DNA of 64,000 nt. Origin: an uncultured Planctomycetales bacterium (GTDB taxonomy: Bacteria > Omnitrophota > Gorgyraeia > Zapsychrales > CAYRXT01). Below, piece by piece: positions 33,069 through 42,432 of the stretch. The notes beneath the pieces were generated by a model. The model saw only the letters and a list, made by a program, of their open reading frames with translations, was not told where the DNA came from and did no database searches. Position numbers and translations under genes: made by a program. Each line of letters begins with the position of its first letter. The first letter of the stretch is position 1. The stretch spans positions 12,592 through 76,591 of the forward strand of contig CAYRXT010000005.1 in the NCBI GenBank assembly GCA_964428315.1, written 5' to 3'.

Positions 33069-34262
33069 TTATTCGGGATCGATGTAGGTGTAGGTATTGC
33101 CGGCGTAATTTCTCAGGACAAGCCGGCCTTGTTCCTTTGATACGACGTAATCCGGGCCGATGGGGATCTTGCCCCCGCCTCCGGGGCCGTCGATGACATA
33201 AGTGGGGACAGCGTAACCCGTGGTATGGCCGCGCAGTTTTTCCATGACATTGATCCCGGCCGCGACGGACGTGCGGAAATGACGGGATCCCGATATCGGG
33301 TCGCACTGGTAAATGTAATACGGCCTGACCCGGATCTTCAGGAGCTCATGCATCAGTTTTTTCATGACGGCGGGCTTGTCGTTGATCCCCTTCAGGAGGA
33401 CCGTCTGGCTGCCCATGGGTATGCCGTGATCGGCGATCAGATCGCAGGCGAATTTGACGCGCTTGGTGATCTCCTTGGGATGGTTAAAATGAATGCTCAT
33501 CCAGACGGGGCCGTTTCTCCGCAGGAGCCTGACGAGGTCTTCGGTGATGCGCTGAGGCAGCGTCACGGGGACCCGGGTTCCGATACGGATGAATTCGACA
33601 TGGGGAATGGCCTTGATATTCCTGAGGATATCTTCGAGCATGTGGTCGCTCAGGGTCAAAGGATCCCCTCCTGATATCAGGACATCGCGGATCTTCTTGT
33701 TGGAACGGATGTAGTCATAGGCGGCCTCATAGGTGGACGGCCTCAGCGTCCTTCGCCCTTCGCCGACCATGCGCGAACGCGTGCAGTACCGGCAGTACAT
33801 GGCGCACATCTCGTTGACCAGAAAAAGGACGCGGTCGGGATACCGATGGACGAGCCCGTGCACGGGAGAATCCTTTTCTTCCCCGCAGGGGTCATCGAGC
33901 TCCTCGGGTGAACGCACCAGTTCATCCGCCTGTGGGATGCACTGCTTGCGAACCGGACAGTTCGGATCTTCGGTGTCCATAAGACTGGCGAAATACGGCG
34001 GGATCGACATAGTCAGCTTTTTGCCGCACCCCTCCACACCCTTCTCCTCCTCGGGGGTCAGCGTGACGAGCCTGGCCAGGATATCTTTTGTGCGGATACG
34101 GTTACGCAGCTGCCAGCGCCAGTCCTCCCAGTCCATGGGCGTCGCGTCCTTATAAAAATTGATGACCCGGTGCTCCTTGGACGTCAGGTGGATTGCCGGC
34201 TGGACCTGCTGTTCAGGCGCGATGTCTACGCCGGTTTTTACCAGATTTTCCGATGGATTCAT
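33069..34262 (-). CDS. kamA: Lysine 2,3-aminomutase (KamA family radical SAM)
   Basis: CAMYCRYCTRS (CxxxCxxC), PLP-binding region, 397 aa (KamA length rather than EpmB/YjeK). Confidence 0.85.
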   Translation of the reverse strand: MNPSENLVKTGVDIAPEQQVQPAIHLTSKEHRVINFYKDATPMDWEDWRWQLRNRIRTKDILARLVTLTPEEEKGVEGCGKKLTMSIPPYFASLMDTEDPNCPVRKQCIPQADELVRSPEELDDPCGEEKDSPVHGLVHRYPDRVLFLVNEMCAMYCRYCTRSRMVGEGRRTLRPSTYEAAYDYIRSNKKIRDVLISGGDPLTLSDHMLEDILRNIKAIPHVEFIRIGTRVPVTLPQRITEDLVRLLRRNGPVWMSIHFNHPKEITKRVKFACDLIADHGIPMGSQTVLLKGINDKPAVMKKLMHELLKIRVRPYYIYQCDPISGSRHFRTSVAAGINVMEKLRGHTTGYAVPTYVIDGPGGGGKIPIGPDYVVSKEQGRLVLRNYAGNTYTYIDPE

Positions 34263-35284
34263 TGGCCTTTCTCCTTTTGCTGACCGTTGTGCAAACCGTT
34301 GCGCTCAAGTCCGCAATGAATAATCCGGTGGATCATCTGTTCATAGGTCTGCCCCATGCAGCGGGGAATGTAGCTGAAAACATCTTCGAGGGCCAGGCAC
34401 GGCAGGGGGTTGATCTCCAGGACATAGGGCCGCCCATCCTCGTCGACCCGGAAATCCACCCGGCCGAAGTCACGGCACTCCACGCTGCGGTAGACCCTGA
34501 GTGCCAGTTCCTGCAGTCTCCGGGCCATATCGTCCGGGATCCCGGCCGGACAGACATAACGAAGGTTATCCGATGAAATCCTCTCAAACGTATAAAAATC
34601 GTCGCCCAGGTCAGTCTTCCCGTCGATCTGCACCTGCACAACGGGAAGGGCCTCGGGCGGCTCGTTGCCCACCACCGCAACCGTGAACTCCGTTCCGCGG
34701 ATGAACTCCTCGACCAGGGCGGACTGCTTATAGACGCGGGTGATCAGCTCGACCTGCCGGAGGAGTTCTTCGTGGTTCGTTACCCGGGAACGCGCGGACA
34801 ATCCTTTGGACGAACCTTCGGCACGGCATTTCACGATCAGGGGAAATCCAATCGTGTTCAGGTCTTCCAGCCCCCTCGTGCTTCCCGCTTCAAAAAAACG
34901 GGGCGTCGGAATGCCTTCGGCCAAAAAAAACTTTTTGGCCATCACTTTATCCAGGGTGATCCCCAGGGTCAAGGCGTCGGATCCTATGTACGGGATGCCG
35001 CGCATTTCCAGGATCAGCGGCACCTGGGATTCCCGGTTGCGCCCCCCGGCACCCTCGGCGAGGTTAAAGACAATATCCACGTCCAGCCCGTCGATCTGCT
35101 GGATCAGGTTCTTCACGTTCCCTATGCGTTTGACGAGAAAACCGTTGGTTTCAATGGCGGCGGCGAGGTCATCGATGACTCTAGGCGGGTCGAATTCGGC
35201 GTTGATGTCGCAGGGATCGCCCGGACGGGGATTCCAGTCGGTCTTAAGATCGTATGTCAGGCCAATGATTCTCTTTCTTTCCAT
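34259..35284 (-). CDS. ATP-grasp ligase, D-alanine--D-alanine ligase (Ddl)-like
   Basis: Ddl-like N domain (RIIGLTYDL...), central ATP-grasp (FPLIVKCRAEGSSKG...EEFIRGTEFTVAVV) and C-terminal Mg/ATP site (DFGRVDFRVDEDGRPYVLEINPLP). ATGA overlap with kamA. Confidence 0.8.
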   Translation of the reverse strand: MERKRIIGLTYDLKTDWNPRPGDPCDINAEFDPPRVIDDLAAAIETNGFLVKRIGNVKNLIQQIDGLDVDIVFNLAEGAGGRNRESQVPLILEMRGIPYIGSDALTLGITLDKVMAKKFFLAEGIPTPRFFEAGSTRGLEDLNTIGFPLIVKCRAEGSSKGLSARSRVTNHEELLRQVELITRVYKQSALVEEFIRGTEFTVAVVGNEPPEALPVVQVQIDGKTDLGDDFYTFERISSDNLRYVCPAGIPDDMARRLQELALRVYRSVECRDFGRVDFRVDEDGRPYVLEINPLPCLALEDVFSYIPRCMGQTYEQMIHRIIHCGLERNGLHNGQQKEKGQ

Positions 35285-35297
35285 GGACAAAAAAACA

Positions 35298-35320
35298 GGA
35301 ACCTCTCTTTCAGCGGTTCC
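35298..35320 (-). promoter_or_regulatory. Leader hairpin plus U7 tract immediately 5' of the ATP-grasp/kamA start codon
   Basis: Minus-strand RNA reads GGAACC-GCUGAAAGAGA-GGUUCC-UGUUUUUUUGUCC-AUG. The stem-loop and U-tract occupy the position where an SD would be. Confidence 0.45.
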
Positions 35321-35524
35321 CGGATATAGATAGACCTTTCAATAGAAACGTCCCCACTTGTTTAAACAGCCTTAATAAAAGCCTTCGCCGAACCAGGCTC
35401 GTATCTTTTCTGTCTCATCTTCCGTCGACATAGTCATCACCAAATCGTAAATTTTCACAATTTTTTTATCATATACCTTTCGGGTTGTCAAGACATTACG
35501 GAACTAATCTTTCCGCGCGTATTC

Positions 35525-36781
35525 TCACATCTTCGCCGGAAAGAACGCCATGAAGGCCACCATCATCATTGTCAGGCCGATGACGGCAACGACAGTGAAC
35601 CACGCGATGAAATTAAATAGCCGGCTGTTGACGTATTCCCCCATGATCTCCCTGTTATTGATCAGCCAAAGCATGATAATGAGGATAAACGGCAGCAGGA
35701 TGCCGTTGCCGACCTGAGAGAGGAACATGATCTCGAGGAGCGGGAAACGCGGGATCAAAACGACGCCGGCCCCTATGACGATGATCGCCGTGTAAAGCCC
35801 GAAAAACTGCGGGGCCTCTTCAAAGCGCCTGTCGACGCCCGCGTCCCATCCCATCCCCTCGCATATGCTGTAGGCCGTCGACAAGGGAAGCACGGAGGCC
35901 GCGAAGATCGAGGCGTTAAACAGGCCGAAGGCAAAAAGGAGGCTGGCGTAATTGCCCGCGAGGGGCCTGAGGGCGATGGCCGCGTCCTTGGCCGTCTGGA
36001 TATCGACGCCGGCCTTGAACATCGTAGCGGCGCAAGCCACGACGATAAAAAAAGCCACCGCCGGGGCCAGGATGCATCCCCCGACCACATCCAGCCGGAC
36101 ATGTCTGTATTCCTCGAGGCTCACGCCCTTTTCCACGATGGAGGACTGCAGATAAAATTGCATCCACGGGGCAATGGTCGTGCCAACCAGACCGACGAGC
36201 ATGACCGAATAATCCAGGTTCCACCGGAACCGGGGATGGATCGTGGCCTCGAGCACCCGGGGCCAGTCGGGACCGGCCAGAAAACCCGAAACCACATAAG
36301 CGACATAAAAAAAACACGCCCATAAAAATATCTTTTCCACGGACTTATAGGTGCCCTTGACGACCAGGGTCCAGACGGCCAGCGCCGCCGCCGGCACCGC
36401 AAACCACTTGCTGACAAAGAAGATCTCCATGGCCGCGGCCACGCCGGCGAACTCGGCCATGGTATTGAGGAGGTTGATGACAAGCAGCGCGACCATCAGA
36501 TAGAAGGTCACCTTGACGCCGAAATTCTCCCGGATCAGGTCCGCCAGGCCTTTGCCGGTCGCCACGGCCATGCGCGCGCACATTTCCTGAACGACGATAA
36601 GGGATAACGTAATAGGAATCAGCGACCACAGAAGGGCGTACCCGAAACGCGCCCCGGCCAGGGAATAGGTGGCAATGCCACCGGCATCGTTATCGACGTT
36701 GGCCGTAATAATTCCCGGCCCCATGACGGCCAGGAACAGGAGCATGTTGCGCACGAGCCGGATGTCGCGGAAATTTTTCAT
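35525..36781 (-). CDS. mntH: NRAMP-family divalent metal (Mn2+/Fe2+) transporter
   Basis: 11-12 TM helices with Nramp consensus regions (DPGNIATYS-like NVDNDAGGIATYS, MPH-like region); 418 aa. Confidence 0.9.
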   Translation of the reverse strand: MKNFRDIRLVRNMLLFLAVMGPGIITANVDNDAGGIATYSLAGARFGYALLWSLIPITLSLIVVQEMCARMAVATGKGLADLIRENFGVKVTFYLMVALLVINLLNTMAEFAGVAAAMEIFFVSKWFAVPAAALAVWTLVVKGTYKSVEKIFLWACFFYVAYVVSGFLAGPDWPRVLEATIHPRFRWNLDYSVMLVGLVGTTIAPWMQFYLQSSIVEKGVSLEEYRHVRLDVVGGCILAPAVAFFIVVACAATMFKAGVDIQTAKDAAIALRPLAGNYASLLFAFGLFNASIFAASVLPLSTAYSICEGMGWDAGVDRRFEEAPQFFGLYTAIIVIGAGVVLIPRFPLLEIMFLSQVGNGILLPFILIIMLWLINNREIMGEYVNSRLFNFIAWFTVVAVIGLTMMMVAFMAFFPAKM

Positions 36782-36782
36782 C

Positions 36783-38084
36783 TTAAAGTCTCTCTTTATA
36801 TTTGCTCCACGCCAGGGAGATCAGCTCCTCCATGACATCGTCGATGGTCACCACGCCCTGCAGCACGTCATCCTCATCCAGGACGGGAATTGAAGAGAAT
36901 TTGTAGCGCTCGAGCAGCAGGGCGATCTCTTCCATCCCGTCGTCGGTGCGCACGAATATCTTCTTGGGAAAACATGTCCTGACGATCGGCGTCCGGGGGT
37001 CGGCATCGATAAAACGCCGGATCGAGGTCGACCCGAGAAGGTGATCATTTTCGTCGACGATATAGACATGGTAGACATTCCCTGGAAAGTTGACGTGTTC
37101 TTTGATCAACTGGATCGCGTCGGCGACCAGGGCGTCTTTCGGCAATGAAAGGTATTCGGTCGCCATCAACCCGCCGGCGGAATCCTGCGAGAAGCCGAGC
37201 AATTTGCGCAGCCGCTTGGACGTCTTGGTCTCCATGGATTTCATCAGCTGGCGTGTCTTCTCCTTGGGCAGGCGCAGGAGCAGGTCGGCGGCCTCGTCGG
37301 AAGGGATGTTTTCCAAAAGATGGCTCGCCTCCTTAAGCGTCATCCGGTCCAGGACCTCTTCCTGTTCCGCCGTGGAGAGGTCGGCGAAAACCTTCTTCTG
37401 GAGCTCGAAATCAAAGGCCTTGAAAAGCGAGTATTTCTCAAAGACGTCGAGGTCCTCCATGATTTCGGCGAGCTTGGTCGGCGGGATCTGCGAAAGTTTC
37501 TGCCGGGAGACATCCAGCCTCAAGACATTGCGCGAGCGTCCCAGGGTCAGGACCTGCGTATTTTTCCAGGGGATAAATTCCTCGCTCCTTAAATACGGCG
37601 AGTCCGGGACATAAAAACGCAGAACGGCGTCGATAAACCCGTCCCATTCCAGGCGCCGGACCAGGGCGCGCAGCCCGACATCCACATGGGCGAGGTAGAG
37701 CTGGTTATCGACCTTGAGAAGATGGATATCGTTGACCCTCACGACCTTCTGGTTGTCCGTGTCGACCACCTGCTGGTCAAGGACGTCGCGGCACAAAGAA
37801 AATTCCAGACGGGGTGCCGCCCTGACGAACTCGAGCTCCTCCTGCCCGGCGCTTATGCCGATGTCATCCTCAATCCGCTCGACCCGGGACCAGTCAAGAT
37901 GCGCGTAGACCCGGCCGATGCCCCCCCGGCGGATGACAAGCTTGGTCGCGCGCGGATGCACCTCGTCGCCGATGCGCATGATGATGTCGTGCAGACGGCC
38001 CACGGTCCTTCCCTGCGCGTCCAGGACTGGCCTGTTGAGAATCTCCGAAAAGAACACAAAGAGTGTGGAATGGGTTGTCTTCAT
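36783..38084 (-). CDS. Cytoplasmic PRC-barrel x2 + MgtE N-domain + CBS-pair protein (MgtE regulatory half without pore)
   Basis: MgtE_N helical bundle (SQIPPTKLAEIMEDLDVFEKYSLF...LENIPSDEAADLLLRL) and CBS pair (GGLMATEYLSL...IPVLDEDDVLQGVVTIDDVMEEL). No transmembrane segment. Stop is 2 nt before the NRAMP start. Confidence 0.8.
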   Translation of the reverse strand: MKTTHSTLFVFFSEILNRPVLDAQGRTVGRLHDIIMRIGDEVHPRATKLVIRRGGIGRVYAHLDWSRVERIEDDIGISAGQEELEFVRAAPRLEFSLCRDVLDQQVVDTDNQKVVRVNDIHLLKVDNQLYLAHVDVGLRALVRRLEWDGFIDAVLRFYVPDSPYLRSEEFIPWKNTQVLTLGRSRNVLRLDVSRQKLSQIPPTKLAEIMEDLDVFEKYSLFKAFDFELQKKVFADLSTAEQEEVLDRMTLKEASHLLENIPSDEAADLLLRLPKEKTRQLMKSMETKTSKRLRKLLGFSQDSAGGLMATEYLSLPKDALVADAIQLIKEHVNFPGNVYHVYIVDENDHLLGSTSIRRFIDADPRTPIVRTCFPKKIFVRTDDGMEEIALLLERYKFSSIPVLDEDDVLQGVVTIDDVMEELISLAWSKYKERL

Positions 38085-38097
38085 GACAATGTTCCCC

Positions 38098-38760
38098 TTA
38101 ACGGGACAAGCTCACACCCCGCCTTTCGCAATAAGGCCGGATCCGGCAGCGCGAACAAAACGGGGAAACCGGTTTGCACACATTTTGTCCCCAAAGCACG
38201 AGCAAGTAATTATAGGCCATCCAGTACCGTTTGGGCAATTTTTTTCGCAGGGCCGTCTCGGTCTCGTCGGGGCTCCGCGTGCTGACAAGACCCAGCCTGT
38301 TGGAAATCCGGTGGACATGCGTATCCACGCAGATCCCCGGCTTGCCGAAACCCTCAATGAGGACAAGATTCGCCGTCTTGCGTCCGACACCCGGCAGTGA
38401 GAGAAGCGTCTCCAGATTGTCCGGGACCCGCCCGCCGAAATCGCGCAGAATCCCGCGGCAGACGGCGTGGATGGTCCGGGCCTTGTTCCGGTAAAATCCG
38501 ACGGGATAGATCGCCTTTTCTATGCGCCTTCGGGGCAGCTTCAGCATCTGCGCCGGATGACCGGCCAGCCGGAATAACCTCTCCGAAGCGGGAAGCGTCG
38601 TCTCATCCTTAGTGCGCAGGCTCAGCAAACAGGATATTAGGACCAGAAACGGATCCTTCCACCGCTTGCCGACCATGGTCACGGCCGGGTCCCGCAGGCC
38701 CTTGATTTCGGCCTTCAAAAGGCGGACGACTGTCCCGATATCTTTTCTCGAATTGGCCAT
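38098..38760 (-). CDS. nth: Endonuclease III (DNA glycosylase/AP lyase)
   Basis: HhH-GPD (LLSLPGVGRKTANLVL) and C-terminal 4Fe-4S cluster CxxxxxxCxxCxxxxxC (CKPVSPFCSRCRIRPYC). Start trimmed to the ATG at 38760. Confidence 0.9.
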   Translation of the reverse strand: MANSRKDIGTVVRLLKAEIKGLRDPAVTMVGKRWKDPFLVLISCLLSLRTKDETTLPASERLFRLAGHPAQMLKLPRRRIEKAIYPVGFYRNKARTIHAVCRGILRDFGGRVPDNLETLLSLPGVGRKTANLVLIEGFGKPGICVDTHVHRISNRLGLVSTRSPDETETALRKKLPKRYWMAYNYLLVLWGQNVCKPVSPFCSRCRIRPYCERRGVSLSR

Positions 38761-38806
38761 CGGTCTGTTCTTGACAACGATTATTCTACTGAAAGGAAAG
38801 CGGCGC

Positions 38807-39478
38807 TTATATCCGGGCGATGAGCCTCTTGGGAATGCCGATGTCCGCCGTGACGAGCCGGCCGACGCAGCGGGGGCCCTCTCCTTTAAGAAATCCGCGC
38901 TTAATAAGACAAAAGGTGACGGTAACGAAGGCCTTGACGCAGGAACCGTACGTTCTTCCGGTATCGGCGTCGAGTCCCGAGGGAACATCCACCGCGATAA
39001 TCTTTTTCCGGGAGGCATTCATGGCCTCGATCACACTGAGGAAGGGCTCTTCCACCGGCCGGTTCAGCCCCACGCCGAAAACGGCGTCGATGATGACGTC
39101 CGCGACCTCCAGGGCGCCGGCCATTTCTTTGTCCAGCCTTTTCTTAATGACAGGCGGACAACGCAGTTTTCGCAGGATCGAATAATTCCGGGCCGCGTCC
39201 TCCTTAAGGGTCCCGGGACGACCGAGGCAAAACACGTTCGTTGGGATCCCGTTGTCGATCAGATGCCGGGCCGCGACAAAACCGTCTCCGGCGTTATTGC
39301 CCACACCGCAAACGACGACGGCCCTTTTCGTCTTCTTCCTGGAAAGCATCCGGACGGCCTCCCGGGCCACCGCGCTGCCGGCATTCTCCATCAATATGCA
39401 CGAAGGTATGCCGATCTTTTCGATGGTCTCCTGATCCAACCGTTGTGTCTGTTTGACGGAAGCTACCCGGCGGGTCAT
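38807..39478 (-). CDS. NAD(P)H-hydrate epimerase (YjeF N-terminal domain family)
   Basis: YjeF_N Rossmann-like core (VVVCGVGNNAGDGFVAARHL); no C-terminal dehydratase domain. Confidence 0.7.
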   Translation of the reverse strand: MTRRVASVKQTQRLDQETIEKIGIPSCILMENAGSAVAREAVRMLSRKKTKRAVVVCGVGNNAGDGFVAARHLIDNGIPTNVFCLGRPGTLKEDAARNYSILRKLRCPPVIKKRLDKEMAGALEVADVIIDAVFGVGLNRPVEEPFLSVIEAMNASRKKIIAVDVPSGLDADTGRTYGSCVKAFVTVTFCLIKRGFLKGEGPRCVGRLVTADIGIPKRLIARI

Positions 39479-40449
39479 GGCCGATTGTCGCTGTCTTTCC
39501 TGAACAGTTGAAGGAACCTGTCTTCGTACTCGTGGTAGACATGCCATTCGTCGAGTTTCTTTTTCAGCTCTACGGCGGCCTTGGGTTCCTCCTGGGCCCG
39601 GGTGAAGAGATCCTCGATGACGCTTTTGGCCGAATTGGGAAGACGATTTTGAGACGCCAGCGATTTCTTGAACCGTTCGATATCATCCGTATCGATAGGG
39701 TCGTCACCGTCCTCGGACTCAAAGGGCTTCTTGATAAAGTCCATGAGTTTATCGACTTCCTCTTCGAAAATCTCTTCCGCGATGGACAATTCGTCGTAAT
39801 GGCCCTTCTTCATTCCCAGGAGCGATTCGCAAACGCGCAAGACGGCCAGGGATGCCCGCGGATTCTCGATCTGGGAGGCGTAGAACGGAATCTCGCTGAG
39901 CAGGCACAGTCCGTTCATGCCTTTCTCTTTGGCGAGGCCCAGAATCAAACCGTTCATACCGCTGATGTGGCAGGAATCGATCCTTCGCATTTTGCAAACC
40001 GGAAACGACTCCGGGACGGACAGATCGGTACAGGCGTACCAGACCTGGGGGATAATCATATGATCAACCGTCGAGAGAATGGCCGCGAAGCTGAACACCG
40101 TCCTGACGCCGAGCGCCGACGTAAAGTTCAAGAGGGGTGCCGCATAGGCCGCATAGCGTTCGGGAGAAGGCTGCTGGCTGCTGATAAAGAAGATGATGTC
40201 GCGCCCGCCCTTCGGATTGGTCCAGTGGTAGAATTTGCCCCGGGGCAGTTTCGGCAGGCTGACCACGCCCTTTTCCACCCGGATGTCGGTCTGATAAAAA
40301 CAGTCATCAGGGTCAAAACCGGCGAAGAACCTGGCGCGCAGGCGCTTCTTCATCTGCTCCGCCGAGCGCAGGGCCACCTGGCCCATGCCCGGCCACGCCG
40401 CGACCAGTATGGGGTCCCTGGGATGAATTGTCCGGAATGTCTTGATCAT
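39475..40449 (-). CDS. PAC2-family (proteasome-assembly-chaperone-like, COG1938) protein with acidic C-terminal tail
   Basis: N-terminal PILVAAWPGMGQVA is typical of bacterial/archaeal PAC2-family proteins. Family call is moderate confidence. Confidence 0.5.
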   Translation of the reverse strand: MIKTFRTIHPRDPILVAAWPGMGQVALRSAEQMKKRLRARFFAGFDPDDCFYQTDIRVEKGVVSLPKLPRGKFYHWTNPKGGRDIIFFISSQQPSPERYAAYAAPLLNFTSALGVRTVFSFAAILSTVDHMIIPQVWYACTDLSVPESFPVCKMRRIDSCHISGMNGLILGLAKEKGMNGLCLLSEIPFYASQIENPRASLAVLRVCESLLGMKKGHYDELSIAEEIFEEEVDKLMDFIKKPFESEDGDDPIDTDDIERFKKSLASQNRLPNSAKSVIEDLFTRAQEEPKAAVELKKKLDEWHVYHEYEDRFLQLFRKDSDNRP

Positions 40450-40569
40450 CGTTCTTGTGTTCCAATGTTGCGGGAATGAGCCGTTTTTCTCGCGCGATCC
40501 CCGCATAGTATAAGTTCAAATGTCCCGCCCTGTAAAGTCAAAAAATGATTAATCCTCCTCCTCGGGCTT

Positions 40570-41526
40570 CTAAAGGCTGTAACCGAGCTCCTGGAGGAGG
40601 GACAGACTGTCCCTCCAGTTCTTCTTCGATTTGACATGGAGGTCGAGGAATATCTTCTTATCCAGCAGCAGTTCCAATTCCTGTCGGGCCGCCTGGCCGG
40701 CCTTCTTCAGCATTTGGCCGTGCCTGCCGATGACGATCTCTTTTTGTGACGCACGCTCGACGAGAATGGCGGCCTGGATAAAAAGCACCTGCCTGCGCTT
40801 GGGAACAAGACTCTCTATGTGCACGGCCAGCGAATGAGGGATCTCCTGGCGCAGGGCCTCGAAGAGTTTTTCGCGGATGATGTCCGCGATGGCCAGCCGC
40901 TGGGGCCGGTCGGTCTTGGTTTCAACCGGATAAAGCATCGGCCCAGGCGGAAGCCGCTCAAAAAGACAGTCGACCAGCTTGTCGCAATGCAGACCCGTCT
41001 TGGCCGAAACCGGCAGCATCAGGAATCTGCGCGCATCGTGAAAGGCCTCGCCCAAGACCTCCTGCCAGCGCATAATATACCTGTCCATGTGCGCGTCGCC
41101 CTGGTCAACCTTGTTCAACGCGAGGATAATCGGGAGGCGGGACCGGCACACTTTTTCAACGACCATGTTCTCTTCCGGGCCGACGACGCGTGTCACATCG
41201 ACGACGTGAACCAGGCAGTCCGCGCCCTCTATGGCCTGGACGCTGGAGGAGTTCATGAATTTGTCCAGCTCATCCTTCTGGCGGTGCATTCCCGGCGTGT
41301 CCAAAAAGACAATCTGTCCGCGCTCTTCGGTATAGATGCCGCGGATCGCGTGGCGCGTGGTCTGCGGCGTGCGCGAGACGATGGCCACCTTCTGCCCGAC
41401 AATGCGGTTGAGAAGAGTCGATTTGCCGACATTCGGCCTGCCCACAATAGAGGCAAATCCGCAGCGTGTCGCCTCCTCTTTCTCCGGCGTAAACGACATT
41501 TTTTGTGCTCTTTTCTTCCCCGGCAT
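40570..41526 (-). CDS. era: GTPase Era
   Basis: GRPNVGKST (G1), DTPG (G3), NKVD (G4) and C-terminal KH domain; start at 41526 or 41499. Confidence 0.95.
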   Translation of the reverse strand: MPGKKRAQKMSFTPEKEEATRCGFASIVGRPNVGKSTLLNRIVGQKVAIVSRTPQTTRHAIRGIYTEERGQIVFLDTPGMHRQKDELDKFMNSSSVQAIEGADCLVHVVDVTRVVGPEENMVVEKVCRSRLPIILALNKVDQGDAHMDRYIMRWQEVLGEAFHDARRFLMLPVSAKTGLHCDKLVDCLFERLPPGPMLYPVETKTDRPQRLAIADIIREKLFEALRQEIPHSLAVHIESLVPKRRQVLFIQAAILVERASQKEIVIGRHGQMLKKAGQAARQELELLLDKKIFLDLHVKSKKNWRDSLSLLQELGYSL

Positions 41527-41529
41527 GAT

Positions 41530-42432
41530 TCAGACGGAAACGTATTGAACGAGTCTTTTCATCCTGTGGTCGATATCGGATCTGGTCAGTTTTGCGGTCC
41601 GGCTCATGCCGAACCCCTCGACGTTAAAGCAAGCGACCGTGGTGGCATACAAGACCGCCTTTTTCAATGCCTTCGGCGTGCACCGCCCCCCCGATGCCAG
41701 AAACCCCATCAACCCGCCGGCAAACGTATCGCCGGCGCCCGTGGGATCCACGACCTCTTCCACCGGATAGGCGGGGATGGAAAAAAGGATATCGTCGCCG
41801 TAAAAGATGACGCCGTGCTCTCCCTTTTTGATGACAATCAGTTCCGGCCCCATCCTGCGCAGCTTCTTGGCGGCCTTGATGAGATTGTCCTCGCCGGTGA
41901 GCATCCTGGATTCCATGTCGTTGGCGACAAAGAGATCGATCCTCTTCATCAGCCGCAACAGGGATTTCTTTTTATGCATGATCCACAGATTCATGGAGTC
42001 CAGGCCGATCAGTTTCGGCCTCTCCATGAGCTCCAACAGCCGTATCTGCACGTCAGGATCATAATTGGCCAGAAAGACATGCGGGATCTTCTTCTGGCGC
42101 GGCGTGAGTTTCGGCACGAACCCCATCAAGACGCCCAGCTCGGTCTTGATGGTCACGGCGACATTCATGTCCTCTTTCTTGTATTCTCCGTCCCACTGAA
42201 AGGTTTTTCCATCGGAAAGGACCAGGGCTTCCAGGTTGATATTCTTTTCCCTGAGGACCTTCAGGTGCCTTTTCGGGAAATCCTTTCCCACCACCGCCGA
42301 CAATTCCACTTGCGTGAAAAGGCGCGCGCTCATGGCGAAATGCGCCGCCGAACCGCCCAGCATGCATTTGCGGATGCCGGCCGGCGTTTTCACGTTGTCC
42401 AGGGCAACTGTTCCCAATACGATCAGACTCAT
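41530..42432 (-). CDS. PfkB-family carbohydrate/nucleoside kinase (ribokinase-like)
   Basis: GG motif (KCMLGGSAAHFA) and the C-terminal DPTGAGDTFAGG anion hole of PfkB kinases. Start MSLIVLG at 42432; the track start 42483 runs into a purine-rich leader. Confidence 0.8.
   Translation of the reverse strand: MSLIVLGTVALDNVKTPAGIRKCMLGGSAAHFAMSARLFTQVELSAVVGKDFPKRHLKVLREKNINLEALVLSDGKTFQWDGEYKKEDMNVAVTIKTELGVLMGFVPKLTPRQKKIPHVFLANYDPDVQIRLLELMERPKLIGLDSMNLWIMHKKKSLLRLMKRIDLFVANDMESRMLTGEDNLIKAAKKLRRMGPELIVIKKGEHGVIFYGDDILFSIPAYPVEEVVDPTGAGDTFAGGLMGFLASGGRCTPKALKKAVLYATTVACFNVEGFGMSRTAKLTRSDIDHRMKRLVQYVSV

Follow-up and report, generated by a model that had tools for sequence, protein, structure and literature searches.

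Among bacterial Mg2+ importers, NRAMP-related Mg2+ transporters (NRMTs) make up the fourth class. These LeuT-fold members of the SLC11 family have an enlarged ion site that accepts largely hydrated Mg2+. Because NRMTs are uncoupled uniporters, uptake should be subject to some kind of brake. Shin et al. (2014, PLoS Genet 10:e1004429; PMC4072509) found that most nrmT genes adjoin a gene for an "MgtE-like fragment," as in C. acetobutylicum (Ca_c0685) and A. capsulatum (Acp2976/Acp2977), and they proposed cytoplasmic feedback regulation of NrmT by the fragment. This adjoining protein is the obvious candidate for the brake, and its functional record is one negative heterologous coexpression experiment: when the A. 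capsulatum fragment and transporter were produced together in B. subtilis, Mg2+ rescue was unaltered (PMC4072509). Rescue by the A. capsulatum transporter homologue was better for a mutant in Mn2+ uptake than for one in Mg2+ uptake (PMC4072509). NRMTs also transport alone, both in complementation assays (PMC4072509) and in liposomes. An M-box riboswitch is found upstream in many, not all, nrmT operons and hence does not strictly define them.

A characterized NRMT is EleNRMT of Eggerthella lenta (7qia/7qic; Ramanadane et al. 2022 eLife). It carries both Mg2+ and Mn2+, independently of H+, and its residues D55, G58, T224, and Q379 have been tested by mutagenesis (PMC8806188). That study dealt with the transporter alone and did not discuss the adjoining gene. 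Here we describe a locus in which such a pair of genes occurs in Candidatus Omnitrophota, a host phylum that sets it apart from the operons of Shin et al.

A pore-less MgtE-like protein with a tandem PRC barrel

The locus is in a 64,000-nucleotide stretch of DNA (the window), and all of the features described below are on its minus strand. As in the operons of Shin et al., a gene for a pore-less homologue of the cytoplasmic part of MgtE directly precedes a gene for a putative NRAMP-related Mg2+ transporter on the same strand. The MgtE-like gene (433 aa; 36783..38084) and the transporter gene (418 aa; 35525..36781) are both where the initial annotation had placed them. However, the gap between the stop codon of the first and the ATG of the second is 1 nt (TAAgATG) rather than the 2 nt given there. 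The upstream neighbor is the endonuclease III gene, nth (38098..38760; Pfam and NCBIfam matches), and its stop codon was correctly placed 13 nt before the ATG of the MgtE-like gene.

The MgtE-like protein (here called the fragment) consists of a tandem PRC barrel, an MgtE_N domain, a CBS pair, and a C-terminal helix, in that order. Two PRC-barrel-like segments had been noted before. Both are present, with the first spanning residues 9 to 77 (37854..38060) and the second residues 97 to 179 (37548..37796), but the second is divergent and has a helical insertion. Next come the helical MgtE_N domain (residues 187 to 301; 37182..37526; PF03448), which contains D263 and D267, and the CBS pair (residues 307 to 413; 36846..37166). 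The C-terminal helix, IDDVMEELISLAWSKYKERL (36786..36845), corresponds to the first part of the plug helix of MgtE. A Pfam scan confirmed all three domain types: MgtE_N at residues 201 to 301 (E value of 2.3e-19), two CBS domains (E value of 3.3e-15), and PRC (27 bits, where the cutoff is 21.2). The PRC assignment has both the sequence profile and the barrel fold behind it. Also as first described, we found no membrane segment in the fragment, in which the maximum 19-residue Kyte-Doolittle mean is 1.13, compared with 2.59 in the adjoining transporter. There was no Pfam match to the MgtE transmembrane pore domain (PF01769) in the 433-aa product, which terminates within the plug-helix equivalent. 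Therefore, the fragment is not an MgtE channel. It has the MgtE_N domain and CBS pair of the T. thermophilus channel (TtMgtE; 2yvx/2zy9), but it lacks the transmembrane domain and carries the tandem PRC barrel as an N-terminal extra.

A frameshift or assembly error might have separated a normal MgtE from its pore, and the fragment is similar to MgtE in length (433 and about 450 aa, respectively), if in nothing else that favors an artifact. However, more than 1,000 homologues share its length of about 430 aa and its architecture, and an identical protein is present in an independent Logan assembly. In addition, what begins immediately past the stop codon is a complete NRMT gene. With no PF01769 signal, these findings exclude a hidden or frameshifted pore, uphold the earlier reading in this respect, and leave an artifact with almost no probability.

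Un-split versions of the protein also exist. These are PRC-MgtE_N-CBS-MgtE proteins of about 600 aa, such as P0329, a Dehalococcoidia "magnesium transporter." They share the PRC-PRC-MgtE_N-CBS module (32% identity over residues 9 to 419), but unlike the fragment they include the pore domain of MgtE (PF01769) in cis. In the one locus seen, no NRAMP gene was adjacent. The fragment corresponds to the entire cytoplasmic regulatory portion of an MgtE channel with PRC barrels, split from its pore. The initial annotation had proposed a modular swap, and the un-split proteins fit that idea; the pairing itself had already been published (Shin et al. 2014, PMC4072509).

PRC barrels also occur in archaeal CdpB1/CdpB2, the RimM C-domain, and the reaction-center H subunit, from which the fragment differs in having two tandem barrels ahead of a Mg2+-sensor module. 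We know of no functional link of these barrels to cell division or ribosome maturation. The fragment always includes the tandem barrel, in Omnitrophota and Eggerthellaceae alike, which makes the barrel intrinsic to the family across phyla; it is not mentioned by Shin et al. Full-length MgtE also carries the PRC module, which therefore does not serve solely for docking to NRMTs. A stand-alone PRC2 protein, P0241 (206 aa), was rejected as a candidate, since its gene ends 74 nt from the contig end and cannot be distinguished from a truncation.

The adjoining transporter belongs to the NRMT clade

The 418-aa open reading frame matches Pfam Nramp (PF01566) with an E value of 2.7e-103 and covers 357 of the 357 profile positions. 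Its best PDB match is EleNRMT (7qia; E value of 1.8e-110 over 398 residues), whereas the best MntH match has an E value of 1.1e-29. The TM1 ion-site motif is NVDNDAGGI (D32 and G35; 36674..36700), where classical NRAMPs have DPGN, so that in this D-x-G-G site the Asp is retained and the Asn is replaced by Gly. The TM6 motif is GTTIAPWM (T201 and A204; 36161..36184), at the position of A..MPH in classical NRAMPs, and in this T-x-x-A site Thr replaces Ala and Ala replaces Met. NDAGG, GTTIAPWM, and the helix 10 Gln are identical in EleNRMT, with D32, G35, T201, A204, and Q356 corresponding to EleNRMT D55, G58, T224, A227, and Q379. TTIAPWM is present in 57 of 68 paired homologues. EleNRMT is a characterized transporter, whereas the window protein is known from its sequence, which places it in the NRMT clade and not among MntH-type proteins and predicts Mg2+ transport. 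Because the partner falls in this clade, the locus would pair a Mg2+ sensor with a Mg2+ transporter.

The initial annotation had instead proposed that an MntH-type Mn2+/Fe2+ importer is gated by the MgtE-like module in response to Mg2+ or ATP. The tight and conserved coupling of the module to an NRAMP-family neighbor stands, but not the MntH-type assignment or Mn2+/Fe2+ uptake as the gated process. The NCBIfam MntH model does match the transporter, at 140.9 bits, far below its cutoff of 430. EleNRMT carries Mn2+ too, and the A. capsulatum homologue was better at rescuing a Mn2+-uptake mutant, so that Mn2+ may be a physiological co-substrate. However, the ion-site signature is that of NRMTs, and by E value the protein lies about 80 orders of magnitude nearer EleNRMT than any MntH. 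Moreover, Mg2+ is excluded by classical NRAMPs, and NRMTs are not known to carry Fe2+. An MntH-type importer as the gated partner is therefore very improbable, and the ATP part of the proposal is doubtful (see below).

The pairing is conserved in two phyla

An NRMT gene is directly downstream of the fragment gene in 66 of 79 informative Omnitrophota loci, counted by GTDB species (84%). The pair also occurs in Eggerthellaceae, where a PRC-MgtE_N-CBS gene immediately precedes the genes for relatives that share 91% identity with EleNRMT. In a distant Omnitrophota clade, the pair is kept though the flanking genes differ. The spacing between the two genes is usually from −10 to +40 nt, with 1- or 4-nt overlaps in many of the pairs. 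This adjacency is far beyond chance and is conserved and translationally coupled across two phyla, in line with the neighborhood that had been pointed out in the window.

The nth gene behaves differently. Of 80 loci, 49 have it upstream of the fragment gene, and it is missing there in the distant Omnitrophota clade and in Eggerthellaceae. Its linkage is lineage-specific synteny, and nth is a syntenic neighbor outside the functional unit. The three genes had been read as apparently cotranscribed. A promoter scan of positions 35000 to 41800 gave a single sigma-70-like site, within nth (38238-38209), and a terminator scan of the same region gave no intergenic signal above shuffled sequences; both are too weak to decide transcription units. 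There was no Rfam match to the M-box riboswitch at the gathering threshold in the window, and 13 distant Omnitrophota loci and two from Eggerthellaceae (L088 and L090) also gave none. In this, the window and related Omnitrophota loci differ from the operons of Shin et al.

Not every fragment has a neighboring transporter. Thirteen Omnitrophota species, in at least four separate clades, have intact orphan fragments with no NRMT within 5 kb. These orphans are what would be expected if the fragment were an autonomous cytosolic sensor of Mg2+ or another ligand, with PRC barrels that signal to some other partner and an NRMT that is merely coexpressed. The negative B. subtilis result would fit as well, as would the PRC module of full-length MgtE and the role of PRC barrels as protein-interaction modules in RimM, CdpB, and RC-H. 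However, 84% adjacency in Omnitrophota, kept across phyla with translational coupling, argues against an autonomous sensor, and the membrane anchor of Eggerthellaceae fragments (see below) suggests action at the membrane. Orphan-fragment genomes may also encode an NRMT elsewhere. We consider an autonomous sensor unlikely.

Mg4 and Mg6 ligands are retained and most pore-coupling ligands are lost

We aligned the fragment to TtMgtE and used the Mg2+ site list of Maruyama 2018 (PMC5882242). The Mg4 ligands D91 and D247 of TtMgtE correspond to D263 and D416 of the fragment, and the Mg6 ligand D95 corresponds to D267. None of these three residues varies, even in Eggerthellaceae. However, the fragment differs from TtMgtE at the sites that couple sensor to pore, which speaks against feedback control. 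Half of Mg5 is kept (K395/E419), with D226 of TtMgtE lost. The Mg7 ligand E59 is replaced by K231, and the plug-helix ligands of Mg2 (E258) and Mg3 (D259) are replaced by S427 and K428, respectively.

The acidic clusters are conserved in the fragment, and Shin et al. raised the alternative that it is a chaperone or buffer for Mg2+ or another metal, passing ions on from the transporter (PMC4072509). However, free Mg2+ is at the millimolar level and needs no chaperone, and the conserved residues are exactly the interdomain clamp ligands that drive the MgtE conformational switch. A chaperone or buffer is highly improbable.

The C-terminal helix retains D415, D416, and E419. In Omnitrophota fragments its AW.KYK end is conserved, and in Eggerthellaceae fragments the helix is hydrophobic (19-residue Kyte-Doolittle means of 2.5 to 2.7). 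Because of these features, proximity of the fragment to the membrane is plausible.

The ATP site is poorly kept in comparison with TtMgtE. The ATP-contacting residues Y170, R187, D188, N203, and F227 correspond to H339, R356, R357, F372, and F396, so that two of the five are retained, and the stacking Phe (F396) is not conserved, with I, Y, or L at this position elsewhere in the family. These substitutions make ATP responsiveness of the fragment doubtful, and with it the ATP-responsive gating that had been suggested.

Discussion

The best explanation of the locus is an mgtE-fragment/nrmT operon that would act as a two-gene Mg2+-uptake unit. We put the probability of this explanation as a whole, including the feedback mechanism, at about 0.6. 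The fragment would sense cytosolic Mg2+ through sites Mg4 and Mg6, the acidic clamp between N-domain and CBS pair by which MgtE is closed. It would then bind the NRMT and inhibit it when Mg2+ is replete, probably while positioned at the membrane surface as a dimer held together by its CBS domains. The result would be posttranslational feedback control of an otherwise uncoupled, potential-driven Mg2+ uniporter. Such control would matter at the window locus because there is no M-box riboswitch. Transport by NRMTs without the fragment, the null B. subtilis coexpression result, the orphan fragments, and the presence of the PRC module on full-length MgtE all weigh against feedback control.

More tentatively, and with slightly less than an even chance in our estimation, PRC-MgtE_N-CBS might be a detachable Mg2+-gating module, acting in cis where the pore is that of MgtE and in trans where the partner is the unrelated LeuT-fold NRMT. 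In the orphan lineages, it might act on another target through the tandem PRC barrel.

The pairing of fragment and nrmT has been known since 2014, and the increments over Shin et al. (2014), the orphan fragments among them, are modest. What we add to the existing hypothesis is the tandem PRC barrel, the exact Mg4/Mg6 clamp ligands, a membrane-proximal or membrane-anchored C terminus, and an un-split, ancestor-like form. These additions sharpen the feedback hypothesis without opening a new question. They also bear on annotation, in which "NRAMP/MntH" would become Mg2+ transporter and "CBS domain-containing protein" would become putative regulator. If the reading of the pair as a cassette is true, then it would be a portable ion-feedback module common to different transporter folds.

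A pore-less MgtE module beside an NRAMP-related Mg2+ transporter

The locus lies on the minus strand and reads nth (38098-38760; 220 aa by the gene call in an identical Logan contig), a 433-aa ORF (36783-38084), a 418-aa ORF (35525-36781), a D-Ala-D-Ala-ligase-type ATP-grasp gene (34259-35290), and a lysine-2,3-aminomutase-like radical-SAM gene (33069-34262). As initially annotated, 13 nt separate the nth stop from the ATG of the 433-aa ORF. However, that ORF ends one base before the next start codon (TAAgATG), not two. A 234-nt gap precedes the ATP-grasp gene, which overlaps the aminomutase-like gene by 4 nt. Many Omnitrophota keep this pair, which may form a predicted beta-lysine ligation pathway, downstream of the Mg2+ locus. 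Within nth, toward its 3' end, lies a sigma-70-like promoter match (38209-38238, minus strand; TTGCCC-18-TATAAT, 10/12), ~125 nt upstream of the 433-aa ORF; as a consensus match only, it might allow separate transcription of the Mg2+ genes.

By Pfam, the 433-aa protein contains a PRC barrel that scores 27 bits against a cutoff of 21.2, an MgtE_N domain spanning residues 201-301 (E 2.3e-19), and a pair of CBS domains, with no match to the MgtE pore domain. It also lacks a hydrophobic stretch (top 19-residue Kyte-Doolittle mean, 1.13, compared with 2.59 in the transporter). This agrees with the initial annotation of a pore-less PRC/MgtE_N/CBS protein beside an NRAMP-family gene. An AF2 model (32 homologues, pLDDT 78) has beta domains at residues 9-77 and 97-179, a helical domain (187-301), the CBS pair (307-413), and a terminal helix (414-429). 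We refer to this protein and its homologues as the fragment.

The 418-aa product has a full-length Nramp domain (Pfam, E 2.7e-103). Searched against all PDB sequences, it matched the Eggerthella lenta NRAMP-related Mg2+ transporter EleNRMT (7qia) in an alignment of 398 residues (E 1.8e-110), whereas the best MntH scored ~1e-29. Its TM1 NDAGG and TM6 GTTIAPWM motifs are identical to those of EleNRMT, and D32, G35, T201, A204, and Q356 correspond to D55, G58, T224, A227, and Q379 (on helix 10). Mg2+ transport by EleNRMT needs T224, D55 and Q379 are essential, and the substrates are Mg2+ and Mn2+, not Ca2+, without H+ coupling (Ramanadane et al. 2022, PMC8806188). By these sequence criteria the protein is an NRMT, not MntH, and the Mn2+/Fe2+ uptake first assigned to it was therefore wrong. 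Mn2+ is a possible secondary substrate.

In one NRMT-like subclade (L008 6405-7664, L011 6297-7544, and L024 6324-7568), the motifs are VGNNSAG (TM1) and TTITPWM (TM6). Asn replaces the TM1 Asp, which PMC8806188 describes as universal among SLC11 proteins, and Thr replaces Ala; even so, each gene has kept its place beside the fragment gene. This suggests that the cation site is changed or lost.

The pairing is conserved

The 433-aa protein is encoded identically on a 72-kb Logan contig and has >1000 homologues of ~428-433 aa with equal Pfam content, mostly from Candidatus Omnitrophota. The window evidently belongs to this phylum. We surveyed 80 GTDB species-representative loci with 5-kb flanks. 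The NRMT gene was directly downstream in 66 (one locus was uninformative); in 13 the flank contained neither the gene nor, at a cutoff as loose as E≤10, a remnant of it. In most of 68 pairs the two genes lie -10 to +40 nt apart, and overlaps of 1 or 4 nt are frequent. Because nth was upstream in only 49/80 loci, its linkage is lineage-specific synteny; a distant Omnitrophota clade (40-42% identity) keeps the NRMT but not nth.

The adjacency extends to Eggerthellaceae. There, 450- to 453-aa PRC+MgtE_N+CBS proteins are encoded just upstream of NRMTs that share 91% identity with EleNRMT; the two genes are 4 nt apart at one locus and overlap by 1 nt at the second. Since the alignment of these proteins to the window protein runs from end to end (residues 9-431; 30% identity), the "MgtE-like fragment" in general has the PRC-PRC-MgtE_N-CBS architecture.

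NrmT was named by Shin et al. 2014 (PMC4072509), who reported an MgtE-like fragment gene beside most nrmT genes and speculated that its product acts in cytoplasmic feedback regulation or as a chaperone. The neighboring gene goes undiscussed in the 2022 EleNRMT structural paper (PMC8806188). Our literature search found no functional work on the fragment after Shin et al. and no paper connecting PRC barrels and MgtE. The pairing was already described, and this locus is an Omnitrophota member of a real, conserved operon.

The module also occurs fused to an MgtE pore

A phmmer search with the PRC-PRC module alone against 1.84 billion cluster representatives (E≤1e-3) gave 1237 matches, most of 415-450 aa. 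A 593- to 621-aa set carried PRC, MgtE_N, and CBS, and five of seven scanned members also matched the MgtE pore domain PF01769 (P0301, P0303, P0329, P0342, and P0377). P0329 (L092 611-2410), annotated as a Dehalococcoidia magnesium transporter from a MAG, shares 32% identity with the window protein across residues 9-419. The common cytoplasmic module, with its tandem PRC barrel at the N terminus, is in cis with the MgtE pore in these ~600-aa channels, whereas in the window it is in trans with an NRMT; "split MgtE" is therefore an apt label. Since PRC barrels also occur on full-length MgtE, their distribution argues that they are not a dedicated NRMT-docking device.

On a related metagenome contig (L091 1851-3188), one 445-aa product is called as a fusion of YjeF_N (NAD(P)HX epimerase-like) with endonuclease III, whose genes are separate in the window; that contig also has a 206-aa PRC-only ORF ending 74 nt before the contig end.

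The predicted Mg2+ clamp is retained, but pore-coupling elements are replaced

We mapped the cytosolic Mg2+ sites of Thermus thermophilus MgtE (TtMgtE) by phmmer alignment, using the assignments of Maruyama et al. 2018 (PMC5882242). Mg4 (D91/D247; window D263/D416) and Mg6 (D95; D267) are kept, and these residues do not vary among 32 Omnitrophota homologues or within a 15-sequence set including Eggerthellaceae. Mg5 (D226/D250; K395/E419) is half kept. Mg7 (E59; K231), Mg2 (E258; S427), and Mg3 (D259; K428) are lost; Mg2 and Mg3 are plug-helix sites beside the TtMgtE pore. So the predicted N-domain/CBS "clamp" is retained, and the elements coupling it to the MgtE pore are replaced.

Only two TtMgtE ATP contacts (taken from Tomita 2017) have window equivalents, R187 (R356) and F227 (F396). 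D188, N203, and Y170 are replaced by R, F, and H, and other clades have I, Y, or L at the F396 position. Therefore, the ATP-responsive gating proposed initially is not supported.

In place of pore-coupling elements, Omnitrophota fragments have a conserved C-terminal helix, ...ISLAW(S/K)KYK. Eggerthellaceae fragments (L088 2644-3996 and L090 2628-4001), which adjoin close relatives of the crystallized EleNRMT, have a hydrophobic, TM-like helix instead (19-residue mean, 2.5-2.7). This terminal helix of ~25 residues (e.g., KIVGGIIGAVLFLVLYTMALFQIIGYDWR), absent from the Omnitrophota proteins, is probably a membrane anchor, and a membrane location for the fragment C terminus is plausible.

A putative regulator of NRMT

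We consider the fragment a putative Mg2+-sensing regulator that binds and restrains the NRMT uniporter when cytosolic Mg2+ is high (probability about 0.6). It would register high Mg2+, bind NRMT, and hold back the uncoupled uniporter; in Omnitrophota, this regulation would stand in for an M-box riboswitch, which was found neither in the window nor in 13 distant Omnitrophota loci. However, NRMTs function alone, and the sole heterologous co-expression was negative: with the Acidobacterium capsulatum pair Acp2976/Acp2977, Mg2+ rescue was no better with both proteins (PMC4072509). The transporter of that pair also rescued Mn2+ uptake (PMC4072509).

Intact orphan fragments also weigh against restraint of NRMT. 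They occur in 13 Omnitrophota species (L012, L014, L015, L016, L021, L023, L031, L032, L036, L038, L046, L057, and L061; the orphan list also refers to L005-L007), with neither an NRMT gene nor a remnant within 5 kb (n=13), and a neighbor-joining fragment tree places them in at least four distinct clades. This spread implies that the transporter was lost or relocated more than once, and the orphans suggest that either NRMT was relocated or the fragment has an NRMT-independent role. The orphan full-length PRC-MgtE_N-CBS genes sit between nth and the ATP-grasp/aminomutase pair.
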